The notes under the pieces: model-generated | Told to the model about the DNA's origin: nothing | Database searches by the model: none | Seen by the model: only the letters and a program-made list of their open reading frames with translations | Part shown: positions 36,603 through 53,061 of the stretch, piece by piece | Position numbering within the stretch: the first letter of the stretch is position 1 | Layout: every line of letters begins with the position of its first letter | Made by a program: the position numbers and the translations under genes | Assembly: GCA_964453525.1 (NCBI GenBank) | Contig: CAYVOV010000002.1 | Span: 10,189 to 74,188, forward strand | Origin: an uncultured Dehalococcoidales bacterium | GTDB taxonomy: Bacteria > Chloroflexota > Dehalococcoidia > Dehalococcoidales > UBA2162 | Reading direction: 5' to 3' | DNA: 64,000 nucleotides

Positions 36603-37184
36603 TTGGACGCCTTAACATTTGTATCTAATCTAATCTCATCTATTATTTGGCCACTCATTGTGATCTTTATTGTTATTCTCCTTAGGAACCCTCTCCGAGA
36701 GCTTATTCGTGACTTGGGGCGGAGGCTTCATAGCATCAAGTTTCCGGGAGGTGAAGCCGAATTCTCGCAGGAGTTGGCTGAAATCAGGGAAGCTGCTGAT
36801 GAGGCTAATCTTCCTCCTGTAGAAGCTGTGCCAATAGGTGAACCTTTATTATTGAGGGTAGAAGGAGATGTAAGCCAATGGGCTAGGCTAGCGGAATTGT
36901 CTCCAACGGCCGCGATAACCGAGGTATGGCGGCAGGTTGAAAATGCGATGCGCGAGGCGGCTAGAAGATTTGAAATCCCAGAGTCGGAGACCCATTCCGC
37001 AATCGCACTGATTAGAGCATTGGGGAAGCGTCAAGCTCTCAGTGCTGAAACGATTGCCATAGTTAGCGACTTGAGAGGTATTCGTAATACTGCGGCGCAT
37101 GGGATGAAGGTTGAGATATCACAGTCGGATGCAATTGAATATATTTCACTCGCAAGAAGAATCATTGCCGCGTTACAGGTTTAA
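36603..37184 (+). CDS. Membrane-anchored HEPN/DUF4145-like protein
   Basis: N-terminal TM helix. The C-terminal LRGIRNTAAHG fits the HEPN Rx4H motif. TTG start after GGAGGTG. Confidence 0.55.
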   Translation: MDALTFVSNLISSIIWPLIVIFIVILLRNPLRELIRDLGRRLHSIKFPGGEAEFSQELAEIREAADEANLPPVEAVPIGEPLLLRVEGDVSQWARLAELSPTAAITEVWRQVENAMREAARRFEIPESETHSAIALIRALGKRQALSAETIAIVSDLRGIRNTAAHGMKVEISQSDAIEYISLARRIIAALQV

Positions 37185-37201
37185 CAATCTGACAGCATAC
37201 C

Positions 37202-37939
37202 CTATGCAATATGTTTTCGACTCAGTACTCCATCCACAATCACATAATTCCGCATCAAGTTGGTTTCTTTATCTATGAAGTAACGCATCCAAGCAAGTGA
37301 CTTGAGGGCGTCTTCTTTGGGAGTCAGCCCATGTCCATGTGCGTAATCGTTTCGTAAGTCTGCCATACTTTTGCATAAATCAAGAGTCTCTGATGAGAGG
37401 ACTTGATTCTTCTGCAATATACTTCTTACTTGCTTCATATTGTGATTCCGTGTGGCACCATAGGGTGCAGCTTTGTCCCGCTGGAACCTTTCAAATGAAA
37501 TCCCGCACATTGCTACACAAGCATAGAAGTGCCCATCAACAAAAACATCCCTGACCTCTCTTATAAGCTTACAATAAGAGCCGTCTTCCATAAGCAAAGG
37601 CGGCAGTTGAGAAAGCCTTTCCAATTTATCATCAGGTGGTGTACCTTGCGTGTCAGATGACAGTTCTGCAGCCTGCTCCTGTAAATTCTTCGACAGTTTC
37701 TCTCTTAACTCACGCTTGGCTGAATTGGGTCTGAAGTCAACATAGGCAGGTTGCGTTTGTCCACTGACGCTCACAATCGCCTCGCCACATTCCTGAATCC
37801 ACCCGTAATGACCCATAGGCAAGTTGACCTGAGTGATACCAAGGACTTGGGATAAGTCCGTACCACTGTATGCACATACCGTGTAAGGTGCAGCACCAGG
37901 AACCTGACAGACTATGCTGTACTGTGTAAGAATACTCAT
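37202..37939 (-). CDS. HEPN/DUF4145-like protein
   Basis: C-terminal MADLRNDYAHGHG (Rx4H). Confidence 0.5.
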   Translation of the reverse strand: MSILTQYSIVCQVPGAAPYTVCAYSGTDLSQVLGITQVNLPMGHYGWIQECGEAIVSVSGQTQPAYVDFRPNSAKRELREKLSKNLQEQAAELSSDTQGTPPDDKLERLSQLPPLLMEDGSYCKLIREVRDVFVDGHFYACVAMCGISFERFQRDKAAPYGATRNHNMKQVRSILQKNQVLSSETLDLCKSMADLRNDYAHGHGLTPKEDALKSLAWMRYFIDKETNLMRNYVIVDGVLSRKHIA

Positions 37940-38327
37940 TTCAATACTGTGAAGCTAGTTCGCAAGATAAAAGAAAAAATGCAGTGATTGAATTCACTTT
38001 TCTCCTATTATGGGCTATAGGCACTTGCTTCATATATAGATACTGGCTATGTATCATTTTACACCGTTGAGCCATTAAGCTAAAGTGCCTTTGCCCAACT
38101 TCCATGATTCCAATAATCCAGCGTGCTAGTGCCTTTTCATCAGTCAGGCATGAAACGGATGCCGTTGGCTGGAATGGAAAGGCATGGCTAGTGATATTCT
38201 TTCCAATGTGACCCACGCCCGACTATACTGTCCTTAAACGCCCCTAAACGCCCGTAACCGCCGTGTACGAATCTGCTGAAATGCGCCATTATTATTACAG
38301 AACGCGAGACAAAGGAGGTAAAAAGAA

Positions 38328-38606
38328 ATGGCGAGAGATAAGCAGCATGTGTTCTCCGCCAGGACGACGGAGAAGGGGTTGAGGCTCCTCAACCAGATCA
38401 AGGCGGAGAAGGGCATCGGCTGGGATGACCTTGTATTGGACGCCGTCTGTGGCCAGTATGGGCTGGACAAGGCGGTGATGGCGCTGCCGAAGAAAGAGAA
38501 ACCCGCCAAGGAAGAGAAAAACGGCGAAATGTCCTCAGAGCAGACCACCGAAGAGCACTCGGCTGAAGAAAAAGTCCCAGTGAAAAAACAGGAAAAGAAA
38601 AAATAA
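38328..38606 (+). CDS. Small hypothetical protein with Lys/Glu-rich tail
   Basis: Strong RBS AAAGGAGGT 8 nt upstream of the ATG. I prefer it over the overlapping antisense ORF. Confidence 0.5.
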   Translation: MARDKQHVFSARTTEKGLRLLNQIKAEKGIGWDDLVLDAVCGQYGLDKAVMALPKKEKPAKEEKNGEMSSEQTTEEHSAEEKVPVKKQEKKK

Positions 38607-39018
38607 ACAGCGGAGGGCAAGGCGGTTGATTCACATGGTGGGGGCTATAAAATGAAGGGACCGCCCATTTCTGAGCGGCCCTGCCCTTTCACTAGGACAA
38701 CTGAATCACGGCAAGAACGAAGATTGCAAAGGTGACGTATAGAAATATGAATCCAATGAGTCCAGTAATATCATCCGTGTCGACTAACCTCTCTACGTAT
38801 TCAGGAAAAGGATTGGTAGCCCGAGTTATTTAATAGATAGAACTTTCCGCATGGAATTCGCACTGGTATAAAAATTAAAATTAATAATCTTTAAAGGTAA
38901 CAAAACAAGCTTTTGTGATCTACTCGTCTCTAGACGGTTGACGTAAGTTTAAGTAGACACTAAGATTTACCTCATAAACGTAATACTAGAGTGATCGACA
39001 AGGAGGGACAGTAAGAAA

Positions 39019-39318
39019 ATGGAGGAGATAACAGGCAAGTTTCCAAATTACGAGGTAAGCATAAAGGTCATATCTCAGGAAAATATCTGCACAGTTGGGC
39101 ATAAGGTTGGTGATGAATGGGTAATTAAGGGTAAAGATTGCCAATGGAAAGCTCCCAGTATTTGTATGTTTGCTCTAGCATCTATATTTCCCACCTTGCA
39201 GATGATGATGTATGGTGGCTCTTTCCCTTGGGAACCTGATTCTGAAACAGCTCTCGTTGCCTGTCCTGATCCGAGGAGTCCTGCAGTTTTCGAACTTAAA
39301 CGAACAGGAAAAGCTTAG
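39019..39318 (+). CDS. TIGR04076-like small Cys protein
   Basis: C..GH.VGD...PS.C..A...FP......G..PW.....VACPD....VFELKR pattern. Confidence 0.55.
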   Translation: MEEITGKFPNYEVSIKVISQENICTVGHKVGDEWVIKGKDCQWKAPSICMFALASIFPTLQMMMYGGSFPWEPDSETALVACPDPRSPAVFELKRTGKA

Positions 39319-39549
39319 CTAAAGCCTACCAAATGCAAAAATGCCCTCCAAACCTATGCTAATATAGTAATTCTTACATGTAATCGCCTTCTCAAAATCG
39401 TAAAGTAGAAAGGTATTGAATATTTGTACTCCAAAGTACGTGTAATGGAAAGCGGCCCGGCATGAACTTTAGAGCGTCGTGTAATCAGTTCATATTGTCT
39501 CTGCGGAGTGGTACAATGTTATTTACTATCTATCGGAGTTTTATGATAT

Positions 39550-40818
39550 TTGCTAGGTGATGCAGATTTAACGCCCCAGAGACTTCAAGAGTTCATCGAT
39601 ATTGCTGGTTCGGAGTGGATTACCGAACAGCTAACTAGATATTCCACCTTTCGCGAAACTAATTCGCCGAATGGATATTGGTCACACCGACTACCTTCGA
39701 TGTCTCCAGTCATCCCGCTGGTTTATTGGGGTTCACGAGACGTATATGTGCCAACTAATGAAATGCCAATGGGATATTGGTTCGGTGAACCGAAATCGAT
39801 ATTGGGCCGATTGGCAGCGCAGATCAACGACTTCAGCGATTATTGGAAAAACTTACCGGATAATGTAGGCATAAACAACATCCGAATGTTCCTCAGGACA
39901 CCCGGTAGATTTGCAAGCTTCGAGCACGAGGTTCGGACGGCGAGCACTTACATGGCTAGGACACCATACCATATTGAGCCTAGGTTCTTTGACCCACGCA
40001 GCGGTTCAGGTGAACCCGACATTGTTCTTACCAAAAACGGTAGCAAATTTAATGTGCAATGTAAAGCTATGGACCCAACAAAGAGTTCCAATATTTCGTT
40101 TAACCTGTTCCAGTATCTCGTTGGCCGTGTCGGACGCATCTGTCACGACCACGACAGCCATGGGTTTCTTACTATATACCTTGAAGAATCTATGAATAAA
40201 CCTCTTGTCAGACGAGACTTAGACTATGTTGTGAAAGCCGTGTACGAACTGCTCGAGCGGGGTAGAAATGCAGCTAGTAGTGCATCGTGTCCGGGCGGTA
40301 AATTCACATTCAAATCATCGCCTTCGAAACAGAGCTTCCCTCCGCATCTATGGAGCCAGTTTTCAATGTGGCAAGATGGTTACCTATTTCGCGAACGCAG
40401 AACTATACCTCGTGGGAAACACGGCCAATCGGTACTTGCATGTAGCATTACGGGCGGAAAGGTCCCTTCTTTCGAGAGCTATTTGTACCCTAAGCTTGAG
40501 GAAGCGGCTAAGGAAGCTCCAAAGTCAGACCCATTGATTATCTCTTTCCATTTATATCCGCCGGTACCTGTGCATGACTATAAGCGAAATCCGGCTGTTC
40601 AGAAGAGGGTTATTCCCGCTCTTGAGAAATTCTTCGAGCGAAATCGCCACGTTTGTCTCATTCTAATCTCTTCTTTCGCACAATTACCGATGCCTATATC
40701 TACAACCAAGCAGACAATTCTAACACCCGCTTGGGAAGTCGAGAGTCAATACTGGTCAGGTGAACGTCCAGACTACTACCCTGAGAATTCGCTGGCCGGT
40801 TTAATTGAAAATACCTAA
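39550..40818 (+). CDS. Hypothetical protein with PD-(D/E)xK-like nuclease motif
   Basis: GEPDIVLTKNGSKFNVQCK resembles a PD...QxK nuclease core. TTG start. No family recognised. Confidence 0.4.
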   Translation: MLGDADLTPQRLQEFIDIAGSEWITEQLTRYSTFRETNSPNGYWSHRLPSMSPVIPLVYWGSRDVYVPTNEMPMGYWFGEPKSILGRLAAQINDFSDYWKNLPDNVGINNIRMFLRTPGRFASFEHEVRTASTYMARTPYHIEPRFFDPRSGSGEPDIVLTKNGSKFNVQCKAMDPTKSSNISFNLFQYLVGRVGRICHDHDSHGFLTIYLEESMNKPLVRRDLDYVVKAVYELLERGRNAASSASCPGGKFTFKSSPSKQSFPPHLWSQFSMWQDGYLFRERRTIPRGKHGQSVLACSITGGKVPSFESYLYPKLEEAAKEAPKSDPLIISFHLYPPVPVHDYKRNPAVQKRVIPALEKFFERNRHVCLILISSFAQLPMPISTTKQTILTPAWEVESQYWSGERPDYYPENSLAGLIENT

Positions 40819-40938
40819 TGCCATCTCATCACCGACAAAAAATAGTCCGGAGCGAACACTGAACAAATGCCAGTTCTTGTTAGGTAACAATATAAGCTTT
40901 TGTTTAATATTGATACTCAGAAATTTATACGGTTGTTT

Positions 40939-41065
40939 GGACGGGGAGTTCGACTCTCGAGCCTGTCTCAGAATTCCTAAAATGGTGATTTTTTAAAGCC
41001 AAGCATTTGCTACCTCACGCCTGGGGGGCAACTTATGAGACAGCCTGTCTCCCCTACCTCCACCA
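40939..41065 (+). other. Split tRNA/tmRNA-like 3' end (T-arm, acceptor strand, CCA) interrupted by ~93 nt
   Basis: GGAC-GGGGAG-TTCGACT-CTC (40939-40958) and CTCCCC-TACCTCC-ACCA (41049-41065). Joining them gives a canonical 6-bp T-stem, 7-nt T-loop, 7-nt acceptor strand and ACCA. The 9-nt direct repeat GCCTGTCTC occurs at 40961 and 41043. Confidence 0.4.
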
Positions 41066-41372
41066 TAAAAGCTTCTCTTGAACCTAATATTATGAATATC
41101 ACACAAAACATCGGTTTGGTTAGCCGGTTGAACAATAAGATGTTTTGTTCAACCCTGGCTAAATTAGGTTTCCGCCCATTTCCTGCAGCATAACATTCCT
41201 GTGAATAAAGGTCGTTTCCTTCACGGAGCAGTTCATACAGGTGTATAATGATCCTTGATAGTGAAAAACCAACCTATAGCAATCTGCACTCCCTGTTATT
41301 TTATTAATTTCTTTTACACAGGCAAATAGTACCTATTGTTTACGCTGTGAGTCTGGATAAATAGGTGGACTG

Positions 41373-42392
41373 ATGAAAAAGCTGATAACGGGACTGATGT
41401 TAATAATACTGGTTATGGGCAGTATTTCTGCCTGCGGGACTCCGGTAGATACTTCTCCAGACCAGGAGGTGAACTTTCCAGACCCGAAATTCGAGGCACG
41501 TATCAGGACTCATATCAATAAGCCGGAAGGCCCGATTTACATCGGCGACCTGGAAAAGATAACCCATATAAACGCTGGCGATTTTGATATCTCCGATATA
41601 AGTGGAATAGAGCACTGTATCAACCTGCGGAAGCTGTTTATTATTGAGAACCACATAACCGATATATCTCAGCTGGCATCGTTAACCAGCCTTGAGATCC
41701 TCGACCTTCACACTAATGCTATAACAAATGTATCGGCACTGGGAGACCTGGTTAACCTGACTTATCTGGATATTCATAACAATCAAGTAACCGATGTTTC
41801 CGCTATATCCTCATTGAGTAAGCTACAATTCCTGAACCTGAGCAGTAATGAGATAACCAGTCTTCCTTCGTTATCGTTACTTACCAATCTTAGAGAATTA
41901 CATGTTAAAGAAAACATGATAACAGATATTTCTCCCCTGGCTTCCCCGAGAAATCTTACTAAACTTGATATATCAACGAACCGGGTCTCCAATATTATTC
42001 CGCTGGCTTCCCTGACCAATCTCGACGTTCTTTTCCTTAATAATAATCGTGTTTCCGACATATCTCCGATTGCGGACATCAATAACGTCCAGTCGTTACG
42101 TCTCGGTGAAAACCAGATAGAAGATATCTCTCCTCTGGCGGACCTGCAAAAACTCCAGCAACTGAGCCTTGAAAACAACCGGATAGCTGATGTATCTCCT
42201 CTGACCGGTCTCAGGCTTCTGGCAGACCTGGACCTCTCCGATAACCTGATAGAGGATATAAAGCCTCTGACCGAGAATACCAGTTTCAATACTTTTACGG
42301 AGATTGACCTCGAAGGCAATCCCCTGAATGAGAAATCACTGAATACGTATATTCCCCAACTTAGAGAGAAGGGAGCGGATATCAGGTGGTAG
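41373..42392 (+). CDS. Leucine-rich-repeat lipoprotein (internalin-like)
   Basis: Lipobox ISACG, then about 12 tandem 22-residue LRRs (LxxLxxLxLxxNxIxDISPLA). Confidence 0.8.
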   Translation: MKKLITGLMLIILVMGSISACGTPVDTSPDQEVNFPDPKFEARIRTHINKPEGPIYIGDLEKITHINAGDFDISDISGIEHCINLRKLFIIENHITDISQLASLTSLEILDLHTNAITNVSALGDLVNLTYLDIHNNQVTDVSAISSLSKLQFLNLSSNEITSLPSLSLLTNLRELHVKENMITDISPLASPRNLTKLDISTNRVSNIIPLASLTNLDVLFLNNNRVSDISPIADINNVQSLRLGENQIEDISPLADLQKLQQLSLENNRIADVSPLTGLRLLADLDLSDNLIEDIKPLTENTSFNTFTEIDLEGNPLNEKSLNTYIPQLREKGADIRW

Positions 42393-42780
42393 TGAGTTTG
42401 AAGAAGATGGATATTTTATACAGATAGTGCTGGGGATACTGATTGTAGCTTCCTTGGTTTTCTGGACCGACTCTTTGTCACTCGACTATGTATAAGAACC
42501 CACACAAATATCTCACGGTCGTTCAAAGATGACAATTCAGTAAGGTGTTCGGGACTGCAAATCAAATGACAACCTTTTAGCATCTTCTGACAACAAAAGT
42601 CCAATTAGGGGACAATGGGCGCTACTGTACGATATGTAGAACTTTTACCCTTTCCTTCAGCATTTAGTCTGCCTTAATCGTAAATTAGTCCCTTTTTCCC
42701 CTCATTTAACAAAAAGTCATTAAGTGAAATCAGAAGAACTAGCTAGTTTTACACCCTCCCCGGAGCATTAGGATGAAATG

Positions 42781-42813
42781 GAAAAAGAAAAAGCCTCCCT
42801 ATATAGGGAGGCT
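42781..42813 (-). terminator. Rho-independent terminator downstream of the cassette operon
   Basis: AGCCTCCCT-ATAT-AGGGAGGCT stem-loop, followed on the minus strand by TTTTCTTTTTC. Confidence 0.65.
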
Positions 42814-42955
42814 AATAATTCTGGGCAGTGGTCAGAGGCTAAGAGTAGAATTTACTCACTGAACACACAACTCGGGTTCGAATCCCCCTAGCTGGAGCCG
42901 GGGTTATAATAGGCAGAACTTTTTCAACCTCATTTGCAATGAGTGTATAATCAAT

Positions 42956-43135
42956 AGGCTCGTATCTACTACCACGTAGTTGTACCGTAGTCCTACCGCG
43001 CATTTACTGTGGTTTTAGGGAGCAGCACCGATGGAGGTAGACTTAGCTGCGATTTAATGGTCTCACGAGTGGTTGAAAACCAATCGTCTAGTCTTAAGCA
43101 TTCAACCAGCACCAAACCAATTTGGCATACATTAT
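42956..43135. repeat. Left inverted repeat (IR-L) of the ~8.8-kb cassette
   Basis: Hand alignment shows 42956-43135 matches the reverse complement of 51600-51798 at most positions. Examples are AGGCTCGTATCTACTACC, ACGTAGTTGTACCGTAG, GGAGGTAGACTTAGCTGCGATTTA and ACGAGTGGTTGAAAACC. Confidence 0.75.
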
Positions 43136-43144
43136 TATCAGGTT

Positions 43145-43636
43145 TCAACTTGAATTCTTCTCAGCAAGAGCAAGTAGGAATATATACAAAGCTACCGCAA
43201 GTATCAAGCCTCCAATCAGGCCGATTAACAATCCGATATCTATAGTGCTTCCCTCGTTGAGGATAGTTTTTGCCGCGTAAACAACTATAATGGTAACCAC
43301 AGTAGTCAACAACATTCTCTTTACCATTGCCACTGAAATGCGATGCAAGTGTGGTGCTCGTTCAGTATGAGGCATTTCACCGAAGACTGTAATCTGGAGC
43401 GCAAATGCAGTAAGGAAAAGTAATAAAGCGAGCAAATAGAACTCTGCGATTGTTAATACTTCTATAGCTAAGTATTTTAATTCAAATAAGGAACGGTTCA
43501 AAGAAATTCCCGCTTCTATCAGGTGCCAAGTACCTGTAAAAACTGTTGCTGCAGAAGTAAATAACAAAGCAAATACCGCCACTTTGATACCCCAAGATGA
43601 TAGCCAGAGAAAAATATGATATATGTCTATGTTCCG
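43145..43636 (-). CDS. Small 4-TM membrane protein (candidate effector)
   Basis: Four hydrophobic helices. I prefer the internal ATG (MRNIDIY) at 43636, which removes the 71-nt out-of-frame overlap with the upstream gene. Confidence 0.55.
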   Translation of the reverse strand, partial: RNIDIYHIFLWLSSWGIKVAVFALLFTSAATVFTGTWHLIEAGISLNRSLFELKYLAIEVLTIAEFYLLALLLFLTAFALQITVFGEMPHTERAPHLHRISVAMVKRMLLTTVVTIIVVYAAKTILNEGSTIDIGLLIGLIGGLILAVALYIFLLALAEKNSS

Positions 43637-43661
43637 CATGATCTTGTTGTCAGAAAATATA

Positions 43662-44231
43662 TTAATCACCAAAAGGGCTACGGAATATTCCCCTTTTTTT
43701 CTCTTTCCCAACAGAACGAATCTTCCAATCACATGTTCTGTTCCAAATAGATATGCATAAGTTTATCGGAGATTTATCACCTTCTTCTAATGAAAATCTG
43801 CTATCATCACGAATTAAGCCGTGGTGTGACTCCAACAATTTATAAACATATCCATCGCTATAGCTATCGAATGTATATATCCATAATTTATTTTTTATTT
43901 CTCTAATATTTGCGAATTCAATTGCTTCGGCTGATGAACCGGGGGTTATTGCCAATATTATGGCTAAATCCGAATCAAGAACTTCAGCTTTTAATATTGA
44001 ATACCAATTACTGTTTTTAAAGTCCTTATCCCGGATTATAACGGTAAAACCGTATTGTGTTAGAACATATCCAATGTTCTCACGTAAATAGTAAAGCTCA
44101 TCTCCTGATTTTGGTCCACCCAGCCATACTTTGAATTTCTTAACGTTACTCTTAATAAGGTTGACCAGTGGTCCAGGTAGCTCTGCTTCTCTTTTGTGAA
44201 TCTCTTGTAACCAAGATGTTGTTATTTTCAT
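43662..44231 (-). CDS. Nucleoside 2-deoxyribosyltransferase-like (NDT/SLOG-type Rossmannoid) protein
   Basis: KVWLGGP ... ILKAEVLDSDLAIILAITPGSSAEAIEFA matches the NDT-fold pattern (YLAGP ... D.v.a......G...E.G.A). Confidence 0.5.
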   Translation of the reverse strand: MKITTSWLQEIHKREAELPGPLVNLIKSNVKKFKVWLGGPKSGDELYYLRENIGYVLTQYGFTVIIRDKDFKNSNWYSILKAEVLDSDLAIILAITPGSSAEAIEFANIREIKNKLWIYTFDSYSDGYVYKLLESHHGLIRDDSRFSLEEGDKSPINLCISIWNRTCDWKIRSVGKEKKRGIFRSPFGD

Positions 44232-44253
44232 TGTGTTTTGAGAAAATAAGCTA

Positions 44254-45117
44254 TCATACGAAAAGCTTCAGATACTCCTTCCCGCTATCAGTCATCTGAA
44301 CATAACTCTGATTACAATTAACGAAATGCGCAGCCTCAAGATCGAACAACGTATCCGAAAATTTATTTGACTCTTTTAACTCGTAGTATAGTTGTTTTCT
44401 TTCAACAATTTGCTTGTCAGCTAGAATGAGAAGTAAGTGCAAAGCTGTAGTACTATTCAATGACATTGCCAGCTCACTAAATACAGTCACAGGGACCTGA
44501 AATGAATTTTCAAGTGTTTGATACGTTCTTGGGGCAATTTGTTCGAAAAGATATTTAGACTCAATAAACCAAACTGGCTTTGAAGGTTGCGTATGAGAGT
44601 GCTTTGCCTGAAGTAAAATAAATTTGTTTTCAAAAATGCTATAATGGATCTTTTCTTCATTTGGGATAGCGAATAGATTAACTTCTGCATCCGCCAATAA
44701 ATCAAGTGCATCCATATGATTTTGCCAGCTAGCATTACCCCAACAATCCCACATTTGAGACAATATACGGCGCCCCAATTGTTTCCAGTACGTAGGCGTT
44801 CGTGTTTCTCCAGATGGATACCAATTCTGAATGGAAGATATCATATTGACGATTTCCGAACCTGATGCAGCTTTTTCCCAACATACATATCTGTGCTTTT
44901 TGTCAGCTAGTGCTCTCATTTCGCCAGTAATATGTATAAATCTGCCAGGATTCCCCTCTTTTATTAATCGGTGTAAGCATTCATTTACTGTCGAATATAC
45001 CCGTTTGTTACCTTCTACTTCAGAACCAGACTCGTCTAATATCTTAAATTGATTCGAATCTATTCTTGTAATACCAAGACTGGCTAAGGTTTTGAATAAG
45101 TCACCATTCTTTGTCAT
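44254..45117 (-). CDS. Hypothetical protein with C-terminal winged-helix domain
   Basis: 287 aa with a C-terminal MarR-like wHTH pattern. Its start overlaps the radical SAM stop (ATGA). Confidence 0.5.
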   Translation of the reverse strand: MTKNGDLFKTLASLGITRIDSNQFKILDESGSEVEGNKRVYSTVNECLHRLIKEGNPGRFIHITGEMRALADKKHRYVCWEKAASGSEIVNMISSIQNWYPSGETRTPTYWKQLGRRILSQMWDCWGNASWQNHMDALDLLADAEVNLFAIPNEEKIHYSIFENKFILLQAKHSHTQPSKPVWFIESKYLFEQIAPRTYQTLENSFQVPVTVFSELAMSLNSTTALHLLLILADKQIVERKQLYYELKESNKFSDTLFDLEAAHFVNCNQSYVQMTDSGKEYLKLFV

Positions 45118-46259
45118 ATCAAAACCTCCACTAAATTACTATTACAATTATGCTGTTTCGATTTTCGCCGTGCATCCCAATTTAGTTTTTCTTTCCATAT
45201 GAATTCATCTTGGTTTGGTTTAAAAGAGAAACACAACGGAACGAAATCCCCAAACTTATCAAGTTTGCTTCTATTGGTACAAGGAGTTAATACCTCTAAC
45301 TGATGGTCTCGTATTTCATTCGTAGAACTGTTATCCCAAATAATTCTGTTTTTGTAATATCTCGCTATTCCGTAAGGAGATGACAGAAGGTTAGAACAAA
45401 TCTGAATCATTCCATTTGAGTGAACCAGTACTCTTTCCCCCATTTTTACCGGACAATAGCCATAGTATTCAGGATTTCTTTCAAATTCTTGTCGTGTTAC
45501 AAAGCATTGAGGGAGTCTAACTGAGATAGCATATTTACCGTTTTCTATATTCTGATAAACCTCTCTATATGCACCAATCCAATCCTCGATAGATGGATCT
45601 AGATTACCCGTCCAAGTATCCATTGGGGCACCGGCTTTAAAGAGATCATGAAAATTAATGCCATGAACTCCTAGAGATTCAGCGAATCGAATCATATTGT
45701 GTATTCCCAAGTTGCCATGTTCATCACGACGTAAAAGATTCTTATGTATGCAACATGTAATATCGACTTTGTATCCTAAACGTACAGCCTCTATCAGATT
45801 CGACATACATATATCAAACGTATTTTTACCTCTAATACAGTCATTCATTTCAGAGTTAGGCCCATCTAGACTAAAGGTTATTTCGTCCAATTTTTTAAAA
45901 TCATCCATTAGCATGAGTCTATGATTGAAAGTTCCGTTGGTACTAATCCTAATATATTCATATCCGAGTCTCTTCGCCGTGCTTATAAGTGTTAGCAAAC
46001 TAAGATTTTCTTCTCGGGCTCCGTAGAGTGTGGGTTCTCCACCCAAAAGTGATAATTTACTCGCACCTAATTCCCTGAAATCAGATATCAGGTTAATTGC
46101 TTTATTAAGTTCTATCTCGTGCTCCTTAAGATGGAAAGTTAAACTTGGTTTATATATACATTGAACACACCTGAGATTACATTCGTCTGTAATGTACAAA
46201 AAGACCTGTTTTAATTTCCTAAAGTGGGATAAAAACTCATCACTTATTTGATATTTCAT
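45114..46259 (-). CDS. Radical SAM enzyme with Cys-rich C-terminal extension
   Basis: The YITDECNLRCVQCIY motif (CX3CX2C) and the GGEPTL SAM-binding motif are present. At least five additional C-terminal Cys residues may bind an auxiliary cluster. It has ATGA overlaps with both neighbours. Confidence 0.8.
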   Translation of the reverse strand: MKYQISDEFLSHFRKLKQVFLYITDECNLRCVQCIYKPSLTFHLKEHEIELNKAINLISDFRELGASKLSLLGGEPTLYGAREENLSLLTLISTAKRLGYEYIRISTNGTFNHRLMLMDDFKKLDEITFSLDGPNSEMNDCIRGKNTFDICMSNLIEAVRLGYKVDITCCIHKNLLRRDEHGNLGIHNMIRFAESLGVHGINFHDLFKAGAPMDTWTGNLDPSIEDWIGAYREVYQNIENGKYAISVRLPQCFVTRQEFERNPEYYGYCPVKMGERVLVHSNGMIQICSNLLSSPYGIARYYKNRIIWDNSSTNEIRDHQLEVLTPCTNRSKLDKFGDFVPLCFSFKPNQDEFIWKEKLNWDARRKSKQHNCNSNLVEVLI

Positions 46260-47155
46260 TTTTGTAAATCTCCTAGAACCAACTGTCGGGGTTTCTCTAC
46301 TTCGAACAGTTGATTATCAGAGTCTTGTAGGTTCCTGAGTATATCCAGATTATCTTTGCTTTTTTCGTCACGTTCTGGGATTTCAAGTATTTTGGGAACG
46401 TTAATGAATCTTCTGTCCCTCACAAGGGAGTGAAAAGCCTTTAATCCGATATATCCCTCGCCAATTGACGCGTGGCGATCTCGCTTTGAACCTGGCATGG
46501 TTTTTGCATCACTCACATGGAATACCTTAATTTTCTCTGTTCCGACTATATTATTAAAGCGTTTTAGCGTAGCCTCATATTCTTCATAATCACTCATAGG
46601 ATATCCTGAAATGAAAACGTGTGCAATATCAAAACAAACACCAATAAGCTCCGATCGATAGACATTTTCAATGATAGTAGCAATTTCCTCAAATCGACTT
46701 CCAATAGCCCCCTGCTGACCAGCCATTGTCTCCAGAGCAACTATACTAGTAAAGTCACCGGTATTTTCAAATACCGCATTTAAGGCATCTGTTACTCGTC
46801 TGATTCCTGCATTCCTATCAGTACCTCTCCAAAAGCCAGGGTGTAATACGAGAATGCGGACACCTAGTTGGTTCGCTCTTTTCAACTCATTTGATAAACG
46901 AACGATCGATTTACATCTAACGTCATTATCTACAGAAGCTAAATTAACTAGCAAAGGCACATGAGCTATTACTTCTTTCACATTGCTATTATTCCAAGCG
47001 GTTTTAAAGTCAAGTATCTCTTCGTTAGACAATTCTGGTACATCCCACCTTCTAGAGAGGGTGATATATACTTGCATACAATCACAACCCCAATCCTCAG
47101 CGTATTTAAAACCGTTGATCAATCCACCTATTGTTGGTACGTTAGATCCTAACAT
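46256..47155 (-). CDS. nfo: Endonuclease IV (Nfo) family AP endonuclease
   Basis: It aligns along its length with E. coli Nfo as I recall it. Matching segments are IGGL, HVPLLVNL, LHPG, ETMAGQ, GVCFDIAH, FHVSDAK..GSKRDRHASIGEGYIG and ILEI, with the metal ligands conserved. Confidence 0.8.
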   Translation of the reverse strand: MLGSNVPTIGGLINGFKYAEDWGCDCMQVYITLSRRWDVPELSNEEILDFKTAWNNSNVKEVIAHVPLLVNLASVDNDVRCKSIVRLSNELKRANQLGVRILVLHPGFWRGTDRNAGIRRVTDALNAVFENTGDFTSIVALETMAGQQGAIGSRFEEIATIIENVYRSELIGVCFDIAHVFISGYPMSDYEEYEATLKRFNNIVGTEKIKVFHVSDAKTMPGSKRDRHASIGEGYIGLKAFHSLVRDRRFINVPKILEIPERDEKSKDNLDILRNLQDSDNQLFEVEKPRQLVLGDLQK

Positions 47156-47302
47156 TATGCAACTACTTATCTCTACTTAGTGTTAATTGTGTGCATCATC
47201 TGATTAGTATAGCCCAAGGATAATTACCATTCAAGGACGAGCTTCGGTTGGATCACCTAAAAGCTGGTTCAACCTTCACCAGTATTGTCTACCCCTTTTA
47301 TT

Positions 47303-47950
47303 TTATGATAAATCAAGAAAAAGATGTACTAGCGTTATAGGTATTTGAGAACCATTCTGAATATGTTGACTATGGTATGTATATTCATGAGGGCACAGAG
47401 AATTGTTTAGGTTTAGCGGTAAACATTCCTGAGTGATAATCTTGCGCTTGGCCATTGCTTTTTCAACACGTAAGATTGCATTAGATGTTGCAGAAACCAC
47501 AACATATCCCATCATTATGCCATAATCATGCCCCCTTCCATATCTAGCTTTGACAAATCGCATTATACCTTCATCAACATAATCACCTGCAAGTGAGCTA
47601 CCCTTACCTCTTAGCTTCTTCGCCTCTGCTGCTAAATACCGATCATTATCATTAGGATACTCTGTCCAACGGAATTTGATATCAATCCTTAACATTTCAA
47701 GGGGATTTTCAAGGTTACTCTGTGTACCTACTTGGGGATCCCAATTAATAATATCACTTACACCTTCTCGCTGAGCGTGCTTCATTTCATCGCTAAGGTA
47801 TAGAGTGATATCATCCTCAGCTAAATCTGGCGTTGCTATGTTTCTTGCTCGAAGCCTACTCCATCCTGCTACAAGAAGATCTAAGGCTGCACTTACATAT
47901 AACTGAGAAACAGGGAAGTATGGTATGCCCAAATAACTAGCATTAGTCAT
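47303..47950 (-). CDS. Putative PD-(D/E)xK nuclease partner of the methyltransferase
   Basis: RIDIKF...(about 18 aa)...AAEAKKL fits D...ExK. It lies 7 nt downstream of the MTase gene. Confidence 0.45.
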   Translation of the reverse strand: MTNASYLGIPYFPVSQLYVSAALDLLVAGWSRLRARNIATPDLAEDDITLYLSDEMKHAQREGVSDIINWDPQVGTQSNLENPLEMLRIDIKFRWTEYPNDNDRYLAAEAKKLRGKGSSLAGDYVDEGIMRFVKARYGRGHDYGIMMGYVVVSATSNAILRVEKAMAKRKIITQECLPLNLNNSLCPHEYTYHSQHIQNGSQIPITLVHLFLDLS

Positions 47951-47957
47951 TGGATAA

Positions 47958-50900
47958 TTACTCCATATGCTCGCGTACTACAGTGTCAGCATCATTAAGT
48001 GCGGAAGCCTCGTTCCACAGACGGCTTTCACTTGGCTTAATAATCCAGAAAGTCTCGTTATCATAAACTCTTAGGTTACGTTGTACATAAAGATGATCAG
48101 TGATTTTTAAGCGAAGGTGCTCTGATATTTGACCTAGAAGGTCCTGAATACCCGCTATTTGAAATTCATTAATCGTGTTAGCATTACCTCGTTTTTGTAA
48201 CGTGAAATGACATGCTCTTAATGGTGCCTTTTGCACGTTAAATATTGTAGCTGAAAGCTGAAGGTCACCATGATATAAAATTTCATTTAGCTGCAAACAT
48301 ATTCGTCTTGCATAGTCGATAAGTTCTTGGGAAGTTGGTTCTCCAATCGCGAGACTATACTTAGCAGTCCTCCTTTGAAGTAAAGGATCTATCGTATATG
48401 TTATTGTATCCCTAATTAGAATAATTTCTTGCTCAGTTAGTTCATATAGACTGAATATTTCGTTATCTAGAGCATCTTCTGCTTGCTTTATATTATCCGC
48501 AAGTATTCCAATAGCGTTTAAAGTCCAGTTGTTTCGGAGCCAATTTTCCAAAGCCAGCACTCTATTCCATTTTGTACCAGAGCTTTCGTTAATAGAGGCT
48601 GGTACAGGTATATGCATCCAGTCTCTTGGCTCGATTGTCCTCCAATCCCAACCTAAAGCATAGCCAAACATAAAGGTAAAATATCTAGCTGCCTTTGAGT
48701 TAAGAACTGCATTCAATCGAAAGGCAAGCGACTGTGATGTATGCGCGAACGAAATTCCATAGTACGTATGGTCAATAATAGCTTGATTCATATCATTCGA
48801 TGCTTCTAGCAAAGCAGCGCATTGTTTGTTATCTTGTAATGCTCTACAAAGAACTAGCATGGGTAATTGGAATTTACCTAATCTATAGACCTTTCGATAA
48901 TTAAAAGGTTGAAGATCATGAAAGTCAATTCGATAGCGGCTCCTAAAGCCCGAAGCTAGAAACGGTAATCCTAGGAGTTTCGAAGCATCACGCTGTCCCT
49001 TGTCTGTTACGGAAATACCATATGCCCGATGGATTTGCTTACGGATTCCTGCTTCTAGCAGTACTCTATCTAAAGTGGGTAATTCCTGTGTTCTGGAGAG
49101 TAAGCGGAAGTCTCGCGGAGTACCACGGAAAGCTGACTTCCAGAGGAAAGAGTAATTTTGTAATAGATCTTGAGAAAGAGCCTGGATATCATTACCAGAT
49201 ATGACTATTTCGTCTCGCTTGCGTATCCCTGGATACCATTTTGGTGTTATATATTGTAACAAGGAACTAGAGTCCGGCTTTTTAGAAGAGTATATTACCA
49301 CTGACGCTGGTAATCCAGCTGATGACATCTTACCGAATAGAAGCTTCTCACTAGCAAGGTCAGATAGGTTTACTACACAGTGCAAAGTGTTATTTTGCAT
49401 AAACTTTTTTCTCCAGCGTTCGCCTTTCAAAGACGACTGGTGAAACAAGCGGCTACCAACTACGAGAGCAATTGTAGAATCCTTATTAGAAAAATCTCTG
49501 GAACGCCACATGAAAGCTTGGTCTGGTTTGTTGTCTGGAATATTTTCTTGCTGGCAATATTCTAAATCCCATTGACGTTCTATATTTTCAAGGTTCTCAG
49601 GTTTCTTCAGGGCAGTCCATGGGGGATTCCCAGAAATAAGATCAAATCCACCATTGGAAAATGGGAAATTATGATTAAAATCATGTTCAGTATTGAAAAA
49701 ATCCTGGATGTATAGATTGGGTGGTTGGTTATCTTGCTGATTGTTTTCAAGCAGTGGAGGAAAACGCAGAGCATCGGGTGGTTGAGGGTCTGGATCAAGC
49801 TCTAAAAGTGCTAAGTAAAGACTAAAAGCTGCTACATAGACTGCATCGGGATCTTTGTCCATTCCGAAAATCTGCTTCTGCAGTGTCTCGTGAAGTTCCT
49901 CTCTATTCAATTCACGGCCGCATTCCTTTTCTTTAAGCCAGACAAGTCGTCTAAATGCCTCTACTAGGAATACTCCTGAACCGCATGCAGGATCGAGTAT
50001 TCGAGCTTTAGGTCGGATATTTTTCATGCCCAGACTGAGGACCAGTTCAACTAGATTAAATCGTGTATAGTGAATACTCATTGCTTCTGCCTTTTCCGGG
50101 TCTCTCACATGGGCAAACATTTCATATATACTGCTGATCAATTCAATAGGGATGATATTAAATGAATAAGGCCAAAGCCTGGGTTGTGTGTCAGGAAAAG
50201 CCTTCATATCGTGCCCTGACAGGAAGCGGTAAAGAATATCTAAATGATCCAATTGAATATCTTGTTCCTCTTTTGAGGTAAGAGGGAACAAATCGCCGTT
50301 AAAAGTAGTACGAAGCCATTCAAAGAAGGTGTAGGTCTTCTCTTTATCACTAAGAAGCTCCTTAAATTCGGTGCAGTTGTAGGTATGAAAATTAGCCGAT
50401 TTTATTATTTTTCTATCTTCCAGATACTTGACAAATATAGCTCTTCCAAGCAATGCGTGAGCCGTCGTAGAATCAAGTTTCTTGCCGACTAATAATCTTT
50501 CAGTTGTTGTCAGATCTCTTAGTAATGCCGAATCTACACGCTGGTCTGGGTTTACCTTACGTCCTTGTCCGGTTCGCCAAAACTCACCAGTGTCAAATTT
50601 GCTTTTGTGAAATTCCTCAACATTTTTGAGGTCCTGTTCAATACTACCTATTTCTCCAAGCAAGTGATTTTGGGGATTTTTCAGGTCGTCAGGCTGAGGC
50701 CGAGCGAAACTATTGTAAATTCGTATTGCATCAGTAGTGACTATCCAGAGAGTCGGTATTCGCCCATGGTTCCATATCTTAGTACGAAGTTGATAAATCA
50801 TCTCATTGGTGAGAGTATCTGTGAATTTGAAATATATACAGGGAGTCCCTGGAATCTCATCTGTGGGGCCAGGTACTTCGTAGATAAGATCGGTATTTAT

Positions 50901-51056
50901 ATCAGTTTCCTTTAATAGGCTTCTATAGCGTAGATATGTGGTGACTCTTTCTTTGGCGCGCTCGGAATTAATGAGGCCGGAGACTACTTGCCCTTCTTCA
51001 ATAAATCCACACTTTTCTAATAGTTCTTTGAATTGTCCGATTGTCTCGGGACTCAT
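47958..51056 (-). CDS. Large N6-adenine DNA methyltransferase (gamma-class, type IIG/BREX PglX-like architecture)
   Basis: Motif I ILDPACGSGVFLVEAF precedes motif IV ISGNPPWTA. It has long N- and C-terminal extensions (1032 aa). Confidence 0.85.
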   Translation of the reverse strand: MSPETIGQFKELLEKCGFIEEGQVVSGLINSERAKERVTTYLRYRSLLKETDINTDLIYEVPGPTDEIPGTPCIYFKFTDTLTNEMIYQLRTKIWNHGRIPTLWIVTTDAIRIYNSFARPQPDDLKNPQNHLLGEIGSIEQDLKNVEEFHKSKFDTGEFWRTGQGRKVNPDQRVDSALLRDLTTTERLLVGKKLDSTTAHALLGRAIFVKYLEDRKIIKSANFHTYNCTEFKELLSDKEKTYTFFEWLRTTFNGDLFPLTSKEEQDIQLDHLDILYRFLSGHDMKAFPDTQPRLWPYSFNIIPIELISSIYEMFAHVRDPEKAEAMSIHYTRFNLVELVLSLGMKNIRPKARILDPACGSGVFLVEAFRRLVWLKEKECGRELNREELHETLQKQIFGMDKDPDAVYVAAFSLYLALLELDPDPQPPDALRFPPLLENNQQDNQPPNLYIQDFFNTEHDFNHNFPFSNGGFDLISGNPPWTALKKPENLENIERQWDLEYCQQENIPDNKPDQAFMWRSRDFSNKDSTIALVVGSRLFHQSSLKGERWRKKFMQNNTLHCVVNLSDLASEKLLFGKMSSAGLPASVVIYSSKKPDSSSLLQYITPKWYPGIRKRDEIVISGNDIQALSQDLLQNYSFLWKSAFRGTPRDFRLLSRTQELPTLDRVLLEAGIRKQIHRAYGISVTDKGQRDASKLLGLPFLASGFRSRYRIDFHDLQPFNYRKVYRLGKFQLPMLVLCRALQDNKQCAALLEASNDMNQAIIDHTYYGISFAHTSQSLAFRLNAVLNSKAARYFTFMFGYALGWDWRTIEPRDWMHIPVPASINESSGTKWNRVLALENWLRNNWTLNAIGILADNIKQAEDALDNEIFSLYELTEQEIILIRDTITYTIDPLLQRRTAKYSLAIGEPTSQELIDYARRICLQLNEILYHGDLQLSATIFNVQKAPLRACHFTLQKRGNANTINEFQIAGIQDLLGQISEHLRLKITDHLYVQRNLRVYDNETFWIIKPSESRLWNEASALNDADTVVREHME

Positions 51057-51352
51057 TTTTCGTCTCCCTTGTCTCCTGGTTGGGGACTGCTAACTAGTTC
51101 GTAACACCAACCATGATCGTCACGTACGGAGCGAATATTATATCCACGATTCCTAAGTTCGGTGATAATTCTATGGGTGGTAGCTTGAGAAACATGTATA
51201 GAGGTGGAGATTTTTTTCGCGTTCATCGAATTGTGAGTGATTAGATCAATTACTCGCTGAAATCGTCGCTCAATTTGACGGGAACGCTCATAAGGCATAT
51301 GCTTCACACTTTTTCTAAAATTATAAATCAAAAAATGATATATGTCAATCAT
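51053..51352 (-). CDS. HTH transcriptional regulator (candidate controller protein)
   Basis: HTH segment AKKISTSIHVSQATTHRIITELRNRGY. Its stop overlaps the MTase start (ATGA). The true start is probably ATG 51298 (MPYERS), which leaves the palindromes upstream. Confidence 0.65.
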   Translation of the reverse strand: MIDIYHFLIYNFRKSVKHMPYERSRQIERRFQRVIDLITHNSMNAKKISTSIHVSQATTHRIITELRNRGYNIRSVRDDHGWCYELVSSPQPGDKGDEK

Positions 51353-51394
51353 AAATTGATATATTTATATCATTAACTGATAGATATATATCAG
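51335..51394. promoter_or_regulatory. Three AT-rich palindromes upstream of the HTH-MTase operon (operator candidates)
   Basis: ATGAT-N8-ATCAT (51335-51352), TGATATA-TT-TATATCA (51357-51372), CTGATA-N6-TATCAG (51377-51394). Confidence 0.5.
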
Positions 51395-51599
51395 TATTAT
51401 GATGCCCGAAGTGACGTAACCGATTACAGCTTCATACCCTTTGATCCCAAACTAACTCCCTAATCTTGAATCCCTGAGCACAAGCCTCGTTCTCTTCACA
51501 TTCTTGTCTGAAGAAATTTATTAGCTTGATAGGCATGTAAATTGTTTATCCACTTGTTCTTTGCTCCAACCATTAAAGCTAAAGTGGTCACCCACTGGT

Positions 51600-51798
51600 C
51601 AAACCACCAAGACCAGATTGGGTAACCACTGGTCGAACCACTGAAGCTAATTGGGTGGTTTTCAACCGCTCGTAAGACCCCTAAATCGAAGCTAAATCCG
51701 CCTCCACCAGGGTCACCCCCCTTGAATTCAGTGAATACGAGGCAAAACTACGGTAGCAAATACGTGGCAGTAGATACGAGGGTAGTAGATACGAGCCT
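51600..51798. repeat. Right inverted repeat (IR-R) of the cassette
   Basis: It is the reverse-complement match to 42956-43135 and carries an extra copy of the CTCGTATCTACT iteron. Confidence 0.75.
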
Positions 51799-51975
51799 AA
51801 TTTTCAAGGGTGGTCATTTAGGGGCCGGGGGGTCACCCCCTGGGTCACTTCCAATAGAGCTAGTAAATAGGCGATAAAACTACGGTAGCAGATAGGTGCC
51901 AGTAGATAGGAGGGTAGTAAATAGGAGTCCATATTTTTAGGGTGGTTATTAAGGGGCCGGGGGTGACCCCTCCCT
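51712..51975. repeat. Two diverged ~130-bp tandem units with iteron-like 11-mers and GGGGTCACCCC/GGGGTGACCCC hairpins
   Basis: AAAACTACGGTAGCA recurs at 51744 and 51876. There are multiple RTARATASGAG motifs. GC-rich palindromic cores end each unit, next to the recombinase gene. Confidence 0.7.
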
Positions 51976-51988
51976 ATAGGTGGGGATA

Positions 51989-52678
51989 CTATGCGCTGCT
52001 GGTACTCCAGAGTCTTTGGTACCAGTCTCTATGCTCATCACCAGACACCTTGCGGTATTTCATGGTGGTAGCAATGCTCTGGTGACCGAGATGCTCTTGT
52101 AGAAGCCTGAGACCATCACTGGAACCATCAAGCTTGATGGCATGAGTAGCAAAGGCATCACGCAGCCGGTGCGGGCTGATACCCTTGACTTGTCCGGTCT
52201 CTCGATTAGCCAGCTTCTCCAGTCCCGCTCTTTCACCACAGCTCTTGATAATATACCAAGCAGCATAACGGGTTAGGCCAAAGAGCAGCCGATGACCGTT
52301 TACGCCTACAGGACCACCACGAGTGATGTATTCTCTCAGCATATCAAGGGTATCATCATCCACTGGTAGAATCCGATGACGTCGGTGTTCTCTCTCATTA
52401 ATTACTGCTTGTTCTACCATTAAGCCACACCCCGGACAGAACCGGGCAGTTCTACTTAACCTCTGCTTGCAGGTAGGACAGGAGAGTTTGATTCTCCTCT
52501 TCAAGTGGACAATAGTAACTGTACCCTGGTCGAAGTCGATATCACTGACTGTAATACCCAAAGCCTCAGAGACTCGACAGCCAAGGCGGGCCAGCAACCT
52601 GACCAGGAGCTTATCCCTTAGGCATTCAGCTGCTTGCTCAATCCGGTCTACTTCCCTTGGCTCAAGGTATGTCTTCAT
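51989..52678 (-). CDS. Short tyrosine recombinase/integrase with inserted zinc ribbon
   Basis: Catalytic-domain motifs are present: RVSEAL (Arg I), HRLRDAFATH (H-x-x-R), LGHQSIATTMKY (His, Tyr). A CPTC...CPGC insertion is present and there is no N-terminal SAM-like domain. Confidence 0.8.
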   Translation of the reverse strand: MKTYLEPREVDRIEQAAECLRDKLLVRLLARLGCRVSEALGITVSDIDFDQGTVTIVHLKRRIKLSCPTCKQRLSRTARFCPGCGLMVEQAVINEREHRRHRILPVDDDTLDMLREYITRGGPVGVNGHRLLFGLTRYAAWYIIKSCGERAGLEKLANRETGQVKGISPHRLRDAFATHAIKLDGSSDGLRLLQEHLGHQSIATTMKYRKVSGDEHRDWYQRLWSTSSA

Positions 52679-53061
52679 CTTGCTAGTTCTTAAAACATTT
52701 GATTTTTAACTTTTTGCATTCTTAGTATCCAACATAAAGTCATAAGGTTAAATTTCCAGAACGAGCTATATTATCATAACTTCCCAGCGGAGAAGGAAAA
52801 TTTACAGACTCCGGAGTTTGACTTCATTATGAGACAAAAAGGGCATACTTAGTACTTGTAAATTTCAGTTGGATTCCACTTTCCTTTTTAATAAGATTCG
52901 TTATTTTCAAAATATACCTAGGTACCACAGAAGTTTATTTGTCGGTAGTATTCTAGCGGGTCGTTTTTTGACAGGTCCATTTCAGGGTATTACACTGTTA
53001 GTTGTACGGAAGTACGAGCCGGTCAGGTAGTAATATTTCCTGTTACACACAGGGGTGAGAG

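Follow-up and report, generated by a model that had tools for sequence, protein, structure and literature searches.

The window analysed here, a stretch of 64,000 nucleotides (nt) from an uncultured Dehalococcoidales bacterium (contig CAYVOV010000002.1), carries a gene for a tyrosine recombinase of 229 amino acids (aa), hereafter rec. It is followed directly by two tandem repeat units with an extension (the right arm), and then by eight genes that fill ~8.2 kb and all run in the same direction as rec (Table 1). On the far side of these genes lies an inverted, partial copy of the repeats (the left arm). An initial annotation, made from the sequence alone, had taken the two arms as the ends either of an invertible segment or of an unusual mobile element. 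We find instead that the right arm and rec belong to a module that is conserved in several genomes, where further copies of the site are direct repeats between other genes; the most plausible reading of the locus is a docking site, at which a small recombinase gathers cassettes of phage-defence genes.

The inverted repeats themselves are real. The exact alignment that the initial annotation had proposed as a check pairs the left arm (42955–43125, plus strand) with the reverse complement of 51612–51799, with 128 matches (76% identity over ungapped columns) and a single 15-nt gap, which is there because the right arm has one iteron more. The similarity is significant: the global alignment score is 59 versus -21.9 +/- 5.2 for 300 shuffles, ~15 standard deviations above them, and the local score is 102 versus 19.7 +/- 2.2. 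The outer ends match as described, with perfect complementarity of the outermost 19 nt, TAGGCTCGTATCTACTACC, between 42955–42973 and 51781–51799, the latter being the outermost iteron of unit B; the family-wide consensus of iteron 1 accounts for 16 of these 19 matching bases. Two further claims, that the outer part of the right side is tandemly duplicated in units of ~130 bp and that the arms are rich in 11-mers of the form RTARATASGAG, also stand: the units at 51704–51831 and 51836–51963 are 77% identical at a spacing of 132 nt, and the 11-mer occurs five times in the window, always within the arms, against 0.36 expected. Each unit had also been said to end in a hairpin. Palindromes of the GGGGTGACCCC type are indeed present (51959–51970, 51827–51840 and 51710–51721, the first of them ~20 nt from the rec stop codon), but with a loop of just 1 nt they cannot fold into true hairpins.

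Along the direction of rec, every complete site copy comprises a leader, a first palindrome (P1), a spacer, five iterons, a second palindrome (P2) and an extension, in that order; we refer to the part from the leader through the iterons as U, and to the extension of ~180 nt after P2 as EXT. The leader corresponds, exactly or in variant form, to the final 12–50 nt of the rec coding sequence, P1 is GGGGTGACCCC, the conserved spacer after it spans ~35 nt (CGGCCCCTTAATAACCACCCTTAAAAAATGG), the iterons are five direct copies with a period of ~15 nt (CTCGTATCTACTrCC plus weaker copies), and P2 is GGGGGTGACCC. EXT is crowded with short palindromes (TGGTTGAAAACCA, ACCAGTGGT, GGGTGACCAC) and terminates in the DnaA-box-like GTGGATAA; the window's EXT is 80–88% identical to copies in seven other contigs. 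The two U units of the window, UA and UB, have iterons of different types (CTCCTAT in UA, like the first unit of the related contig L013, and CTCGTAT in UB); the pair is not a recent duplication.

Folding gave no support to a structured nucleic acid at the site. When U units were folded as single-stranded DNA, on both strands, the z-scores against shuffles were +0.2, -0.5, +1.7, +1.2, +1.2 and -0.4; an attC-like single-strand hairpin was rejected, given that U is no more structured than shuffled sequence. A structured RNA in EXT or U was likewise rejected: there is no covariation in EXT on either strand (RNAalifold terms +0.34 and +0.09), and the fold z-scores are inconsistent, at -3.4 for the window's EXT and -0.8 for that of L014. 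Rfam returned nothing at gathering thresholds at the arms, with chance-level matches only, near 42.8 kb, and ARAGORN found neither tRNA nor transfer-messenger RNA (tmRNA) there. Given that the U units are unstructured as single strands, that EXT is without covariation and that Rfam gave no match, we therefore read this block as a double-stranded protein-binding region. The right-arm block would be the putative double-stranded attachment region of rec.

Concerning the recombinase, Pfam and alignment agree with the initial description of a catalytic-domain-only enzyme that abuts the repeats and carries a zinc ribbon. The protein matches Phage_integrase (1.4e-22), with a zinc-ribbon match at residues 64–95 and the CxxC...CxxC ribbon at approximately residues 66–84; its alignment to XerA and XerD is confined to their catalytic half, and an N-terminal, core-binding domain is absent. 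Among 32 homologues, the catalytic residues (R, H-x-x-R, H and Y) show little or no variation, and the same holds for the four cysteines. In an AlphaFold2 model (mean confidence, pLDDT, 79.5) the zinc ribbon forms the tip of an elongated hairpin (strands 52–65 and 91–104), which we take to be the β2-β3 hairpin of the fold, bearer of the catalytic lysine; the ribbon in this hairpin is the sole insertion in rec. The best structural matches of the model are XerA (5hxy and 4a8e) and XerH. Curated Xer models nevertheless score rec well under their cut-offs (XerA 109.7 versus 220, XerC 77.8 versus 335, XerD 75.9 versus 330), as do the integron-integrase models TIGR02249 (51.9 bits versus 265) and PRK15417 (45.5 versus 435). 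With its invariant catalytic residues, and with several copies possible on one contig, rec looks to be an active enzyme that is not a housekeeping one. Upstream of the gene, the outer edge of the conserved 5' region resembles the context of the left half of the P1 palindrome in relatives (AGGGAGrGTGA|TAAAC). Thousands of relatives of rec are found in databases, the closest (87–94% identity) in metagenome-assembled genomes of Chloroflexota and Dehalococcoidales; clustering at 50% leaves ~80 clusters with an E value below 1e-30, with full-length members of ~225–270 aa, and phage records hold no close relatives.

The key observation is that this module recurs in other genomes, with other neighbours. 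Between the window and seven related contigs (L001, L002, L013, L014, L103, L104 and L108), the only shared block consists of the rec promoter, rec, U and EXT; it starts ~110 nt upstream of the rec ATG and ends after EXT, the flanks differ on both sides, and the module adjoins at least six different upstream gene sets. In five of seven contigs of Dehalococcoidales or Chloroflexota, further copies of U or U-EXT lie downstream as direct repeats between genes, mostly defence genes. A search of related genomes for the same arms with other cargo had been proposed as a check in the initial annotation; the site copies found there do accompany different cargo, and they are direct. In L103, rec is followed by U1 (10694–10814), an AbiU2 gene, U2 (11645–11765), a gene for a 261-aa protein, U3 (12690–12816) and EXT. 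The series in L013 reads U, U, EXT, RNaseH-like and AbiV genes, U, EXT, a methylase/BsaWI restriction pair, a GHKL ATPase and a reverse transcriptase; that in L001 and L014 reads U, cargo, U, EXT; and L104 has the same layout as the window (U, U, EXT, cargo). The defence-type cargo of these relatives comprises AbiV, AbiU2, restriction systems and reverse transcriptases. In L108, a tandem of three rec-type genes fits within 9 kb (4340–13388); two of the genes each have a U of their own, and the third (12729–13388, 219 aa) is divergent and begins at a leader and P1 element.

Two comparisons among these contigs speak to movement of the cargo. A 900-nt cassette encoding a membrane protein stands first in the array of L001 and second in that of L103, with 93–100% identity between the two, and the U copies upstream of it are merely 55–68% identical. 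L014 and L104 have 6.4 kb of upstream core genes in common at 82% identity, and their rec genes are 86% identical, yet the downstream cargo is unrelated; the module is therefore a long-term resident at this orthologous chromosomal site, where cargo turns over. Furthermore, the distal U retains the coding end of rec (~50 nt in L014, ~12 nt in L001), as is usual for integrative elements that reconstitute the gene they target. Many metagenome contigs stop a few hundred bases downstream of rec, as is expected for a variable region bounded by repeats.

Variants of the site were also seen. L105/L106 (5460–6007 and 11346–11620) have the same leader, P1, spacer and EXT with other iterons, of the CGTrTTCACAGG type; the recombinase and several genes lie between two direct copies, adjoined by a large serine recombinase and a phage-repressor-like cluster. 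In the variant sites of L105 and L057, the change in iteron sequence occurs at the boundary between the P1-spacer part and the iterons. More distant homologues of rec, at 60–70% identity (loci L003–L100), have no U or EXT in any case; there, rec is directly followed by conserved open reading frames (ORFs), among mobile-element genes such as serine integrases and phage-like genes. In L003–L005, L015, L039, L049, L063, L071 and L084, the ORF after the recombinase stop codon begins M-x-LRP-x-RGGFLRPFGCGWF... and matches no family; in another subgroup the recombinase is followed by an ORF that begins MGKYANHEEFG... and a DUF192-like ORF. The EXT pattern was absent from viral contigs.

Table 1. Features of the window around rec and the two arms (positions in the 64-kb window; E, E value)
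Feature	Position	Strand	Remarks
rec 5' region, conserved	52679–52790	-	promoter-like ATGACT/TTGACT...TAAGAAT; CTAGTTCTT/AAGAACTAG inverted repeat
rec, tyrosine recombinase gene	51989–52678	-	229 aa; Xer-like catalytic domain only
Unit A (UA)	51845–51988	-	P1 51959–51970, ~35-nt spacer, five CTCCTATyTACT iterons; nhmmer 51981–51858, E 7.7e-34
Unit B (UB)	51722–51844	-	P1 51827–51840, spacer, five CTCGTATCTACT iterons, 15-nt period; nhmmer 51844–51725, E 1.9e-36
P2 and EXT	51541–51721	-	P2 51710–51721, EXT-1 ~51613–51709, EXT-2 ~51541–51612; nhmmer E 7.3e-54
Cargo block 1	47303–51352	-	three genes; GC 0.39–0.41
Winged helix-turn-helix protein, 99 aa	51053–51352	-	cargo block 1
Type IIG restriction-modification enzyme, 1032 aa	47958–51056	-	cargo block 1; Pfam Eco57I/N6_Mtase/MmeI_Mtase; PADLOC REase_MTase_IIG 4.3e-78
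Uncharacterised protein, 215 aa	47303–47950	-	cargo block 1
Cargo block 2, five-gene operon	43145–47155	-	Nfo (endonuclease IV)-like, radical SAM, uncharacterised 287-aa and 189-aa proteins, UPF0114-like membrane protein; GC 0.37
Left arm, inverted partial diverged site copy	42949–43125	+	four iterons 42955–43010, degenerate P2, EXT-1 only
Intrinsic terminator	42792–42813	- (cargo strand)	9-bp stem, 6 GC pairs, T run; 140 nt past left arm
IS110/IS116/IS902-family transposase domain	62004–62735	-	243-aa ORF, probably partial

That the DNA between the arms is cargo, as first annotated, is borne out by its base composition, which points to horizontal acquisition: its GC content is 0.37–0.41, versus 0.45–0.51 for the arms and rec. 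Cargo block 1 has its own consensus promoter, TTGACA-17-TATAAT, at 51348–51320 (promoter scan 12/12). The five-gene operon of cargo block 2, with its Nfo-like and radical SAM proteins, recurs at 601–4626 of L109, a contig from another metagenome, at 58–71% identity and beside an unrelated, ordinary integrase of 380 aa; no U or EXT was found at that copy, and the operon is the only part of the window's cargo that was traced elsewhere. Its radical SAM protein has weak viperin- and MoaA-like matches. The operon is a portable module, and it could be an undescribed defence or DNA-modification system. Beyond the left arm, positions 35821–42392 hold a DUF4145 protein, a Swt1-like HEPN protein, ORFs without a family and a 339-aa leucine-rich-repeat protein; these genes have the look of additional variable or defence cargo, so the island may extend beyond the arms.

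On a larger scale, there is a change from negative on the left to positive on the right at ~49000–53000, in GC skew and AT skew as well as in gene strand, and this region has no DnaA-box cluster. The switch may reflect divergent gene orientation only, or an old inversion breakpoint at the recombinase module. A replication origin, which this switch and the DnaA-box-like GTGGATAA might bring to mind, was rejected, both for want of a DnaA-box cluster and because single loci can hold duplicate copies of EXT.

The left arm differs from every other copy of the site. It is matched by positions 63–125 of the U profile (nhmmer, E 5.7e-09) and 4–112 of the EXT profile (E 7e-19), and it lacks EXT-2 as well as P1 and the spacer, which all other copies have ahead of their iterons; its P2 is degenerate (AGGGAGCAGCACC, 43017–43029), whereas P2 is intact in all the others. 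It is also the most diverged copy, with a mean identity of 70.8% versus 78–83% among the rest, and its identity to the right arm of the window, 69.9%, does not exceed that to copies from other genomes. Among nine site-carrying contigs, it is the sole inverted copy. Its ends fall on recurrent module boundaries (U position 63 and EXT position 112): the EXT copies of L103 and L002 end at model positions 112 and 121, which is where, or close to where, the left arm ends too. Since the terminator on the cargo strand is 140 nt further on, the cargo transcript probably includes the left arm in its 3' untranslated part. The GC content of 42393–42954 is 0.41, near the cargo value, so that low GC runs ~500 nt beyond the left arm. 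From these features, the left arm is most likely a fossil site, probably no longer a substrate. Within this adjoining stretch, at 42860–42900, lies a T-loop-like sequence, GGGTTCGAATCCC, with a 13-nt, chance-level match to the 3' end of tmRNA (E 0.17); it could be the relic of another attachment site.

An independent assembly of the same strain bears on the arrangement. Two Logan contigs, L101 (52672–57156) and L102 (42723–51786), are 100% identical to the window; they come from run SRR14802574, whose raw reads are openly accessible. L102 has the left arm in the same orientation, without a break or branch. The ends of the two contigs, at 51786 and 52672, flank the rec-UA-UB segment. Such breaks are compatible with sharing of rec-U between strains or among multiple copies, and we do not count them as evidence of recombination.

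We put at roughly 0.6 the probability that the right arm and rec form a resident platform of a Dehalococcoidales clade, to which cargo is added by site-specific accretion. By this model, a circular DNA with a homologous U, or U plus EXT, would recombine with the resident site, and every insertion would leave a U on either side. Accretion would thereby build arrays of the form rec-U-cargo-U-cargo-U-EXT, from which cargo could later be lost or exchanged. The stacking of whole rec-U-cargo modules would add to the arrays, and deletions would remove redundant rec copies, of which leader remnants would stay behind. The window's instance would read rec-UA-UB-EXT followed by 8.2 kb of cargo (the type IIG block and the Nfo/radical-SAM operon), with the right arm as the active site; the left arm, with its decayed iterons and EXT-1, would have been brought in with cargo or left by an older rearrangement. 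Most of the cargo is anti-phage defence. We infer that rec itself catalyses the insertion and exchange events, and that its zinc-ribbon hairpin may read the iterons or the palindromes in place of the core-binding domain that rec lacks. The crossover would take place somewhere in U; our best guess is the point at which the constant P1-spacer part borders on the variable iterons. A bolder version of the model can be entertained only tentatively: an independent, non-IntI, integron-like capture system of Dehalococcoidales, in which a minimal tyrosine recombinase, having exchanged its core-binding domain for a hairpin with a zinc-ribbon tip, acts on double-stranded iteron sites of ~130 bp, with active insertion and excision of defence-gene cassettes and occasional inversion. 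We found no description of this recombinase or of this type of array in the open-access literature searched.

Several observations weigh against the accretion model. We found neither an empty-versus-occupied pair with a precise junction nor an excised circle; recombination is deduced here and not observed directly. When cassette boundaries were compared, the junctions between site and cargo lay at four or more module boundaries (after iteron 5, P2, EXT-1 and EXT-2), a scatter that a single fixed crossover does not predict and from which the crossover could not be pinpointed. Homologous recombination or deletion among repeated modules could yield parts of the pattern. Arrays that bear U are confined to a close clade (rec at least 83% identical) and to nine distinct contigs, and the rec homologues at 60–70% identity directly precede conserved protein genes instead. 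Finally, the ends of the left arm on module boundaries suggest that it may be a genuine old recombination product rather than the outcome of random decay, and no simple event that yields an inverted left arm could be reconstructed.

This last point leads to the proposal of the initial annotation that the segment is invertible: rec would flip 8.8 kb by way of the inverted arms, in the style of FimB/FimE or Rci, between two phase states. The proposal gains from arms that are truly inverted, significantly similar and identical over the outer 19 nt; from a recombinase that, small and without an N-terminal domain, is like the tyrosine invertases of ~200 aa (its N-terminus weakly matches PRK09871, at 36 bits); from symmetric GGGGTGACCCC palindromes, which alone would impose no orientation; and from a left arm with both ends on module boundaries. 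We nevertheless consider inversion unlikely. Copies of the site in relatives are direct, and the single inverted one, among nine site-carrying contigs, is defective, lacking P1 and with a degenerate P2 where other copies keep both; the arms, at 70–76% identity, bear no sign of homogenisation; 16 of the 19 identical bases are family-wide iteron consensus; and two assemblies agree on one orientation, with L102 crossing the left arm unbranched. The attendant idea, that inversion would switch the promoter context of the cargo, finds no support: since the cargo has its own consensus promoter, inversion would not alter that context, and with a terminator past the left arm no expression switch is apparent. 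The other proposal of the initial annotation, a mobile element with recombinase-binding iterons, came closer in its general idea, in that the repeats belong to rec, but not as a transposon with inverted ends. An element spanning 42955–51799, with ~170-bp terminal inverted repeats whose subterminal iterons recall the ends of Tn7 or Mu, and mobilised in trans, would account for termini identical over 19 bp where the remaining arm is ~75% identical, for several direct iterons per arm and for a low-GC interior. We give it very little credence, as the cargo encodes no transposase domain and the borders 42954/42955 and 51799/51800 lack a target-site duplication (the left flank ends ...ATAATCAA and the right begins ATTTTCAAGG); moreover, the supposed right end runs unbroken into spacer, P1 and rec in every relative, further copies are direct, and low GC extends ~500 nt past the left arm.

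A different possibility is that rec is the single chromosome-dimer resolvase of its host, with a dif site in U/EXT, and that the cargo hitch-hikes by exploiting this Xer system. Its nearest structures and profiles are those of XerA, XerD and XerH, and the site is directly beside the gene, just as difSL adjoins xerS; the locus occupies orthologous positions in L014 and L104, which have diverged to species level, and GC skew and gene strand change sign near 52–53 kb. The polarity of that skew, however, is origin-like and not terminus-like, and no dif-like core of 28–31 bp is evident. One 15-kb stretch has up to three rec copies (in L108, three within 9 kb), the gene sets upstream of the module are of at least six kinds, the scores are far under curated cut-offs (XerA 110/220, XerC 78/335) in a protein with no core-binding domain, and distant homologues keep company with serine integrases and phage-like genes in mobile-element contexts; we regard a resolvase role as improbable, somewhat more so than inversion. 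Least probable of all, in our judgement, is that the conserved ~300 nt downstream of rec form a structured RNA that guides or regulates the recombinase, by analogy to the bridge and seeker RNAs of IS110/IS1111. A long conserved non-coding block immediately 3' of rec, a recombinase without a core-binding domain and a window EXT that folds better than shuffles (z -3.4) would suit such a guide. This z-score is not matched by L014 (-0.8), covariation is lacking on either strand (+0.34, +0.09), as is an Rfam match, and short DNA palindromes with direct iterons are typical of protein-binding sites; copies are also found far from any rec gene, and rec is a tyrosine enzyme rather than a DEDD/serine one.

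Should the platform formed by rec and its right arm prove active, it would be a second route, besides integrons, to a fixed recombinase with a growing shelf of exchangeable genes, using sites that are double-stranded and iteron-based in place of folded single strands. How DNA is recognised in the absence of the customary core-binding domain could then be studied on this recombinase as a model; being very small (229 aa) and having a long, well-defined target, it could also be of interest as a tool for genome engineering. An active platform would help to explain part of the turnover of phage-defence genes in the streamlined genomes of Dehalococcoidales. The U and EXT profiles are of use in annotation as well, as markers of island boundaries at which metagenome assemblies currently break.

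In function, the platform comes nearest to integrons or to the site-specific accretion of integrative elements, without being an integron itself. With the integron (IntI, attI and attC) it shares a resident tyrosine recombinase beside an array of mostly co-oriented, often single-gene cassettes that are split by repeated sites, and the presence of the same cassette at different array positions (L001/L103); such arrays are found in L103, L013, L001 and L014, whereas the window itself has only U-U-EXT and one large cargo block. The anti-phage-rich cargo has its parallel in sedentary chromosomal integrons that store defence cassettes (compare bioRxiv 10.1101/2024.07.02.601686). On the other hand, rec is not IntI, as the integrase models fail on it, and it has a zinc ribbon and no N-terminal domain. 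The sites, at ~130 bp, are 80–89% conserved and unfolded, with direct iterons, whereas attC is variable and folded as a single strand. In addition, rec is here co-directional with the cassettes, which carry their own promoters, and whole rec modules can be stacked.

Among single-recombinase Xer systems, XerA, XerS/difSL and XerH/difH are the closest relatives in the catalytic domain and share the position of the site beside the gene and the accumulation of foreign DNA; they differ in that rec has no core-binding domain, scores below threshold, belongs to a multi-copy module found in many contexts and lacks a short dif core. The FimB/FimE invertases and the Rci shufflon share, with the window only, a small recombinase beside repeats that are inverted around a segment. 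Their repeats, however, are short (9–19 bp), well matched and placed around promoters or gene ends, whereas the arms here are ~170 bp long and 76% identical, and the repeats of relatives are direct; matched inverted sites at both ends are not what the window has, its left arm being defective.

Closer parallels are the accretion of cis-mobilizable elements (flanked by att sites but without a recombinase of their own) and integrative and conjugative elements, and the tandem islands at tRNA and tmRNA genes, which share direct att copies that overlap the 3' end of a gene and some units that have lost their recombinase. The relatives display U copies at the end of rec, direct flanking U and the stacking seen in L108; the window has only a partial, inverted copy at the distal position. 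The islands at ssrA in Dehalococcoides likewise form a high-plasticity region, in the same bacterial class, and are served by large serine recombinases (DsiB) with 20-bp repeats (PMC3146451). Here the recombinase is a minimal tyrosine enzyme, the sites are composite and 130–300 bp long, and the target is the 3' end of rec and the DNA downstream of it, not an ssrA or tRNA gene. The proposed cassette platform, built on a tyrosine recombinase, is distinct both from integrons and from the ssrA island system.

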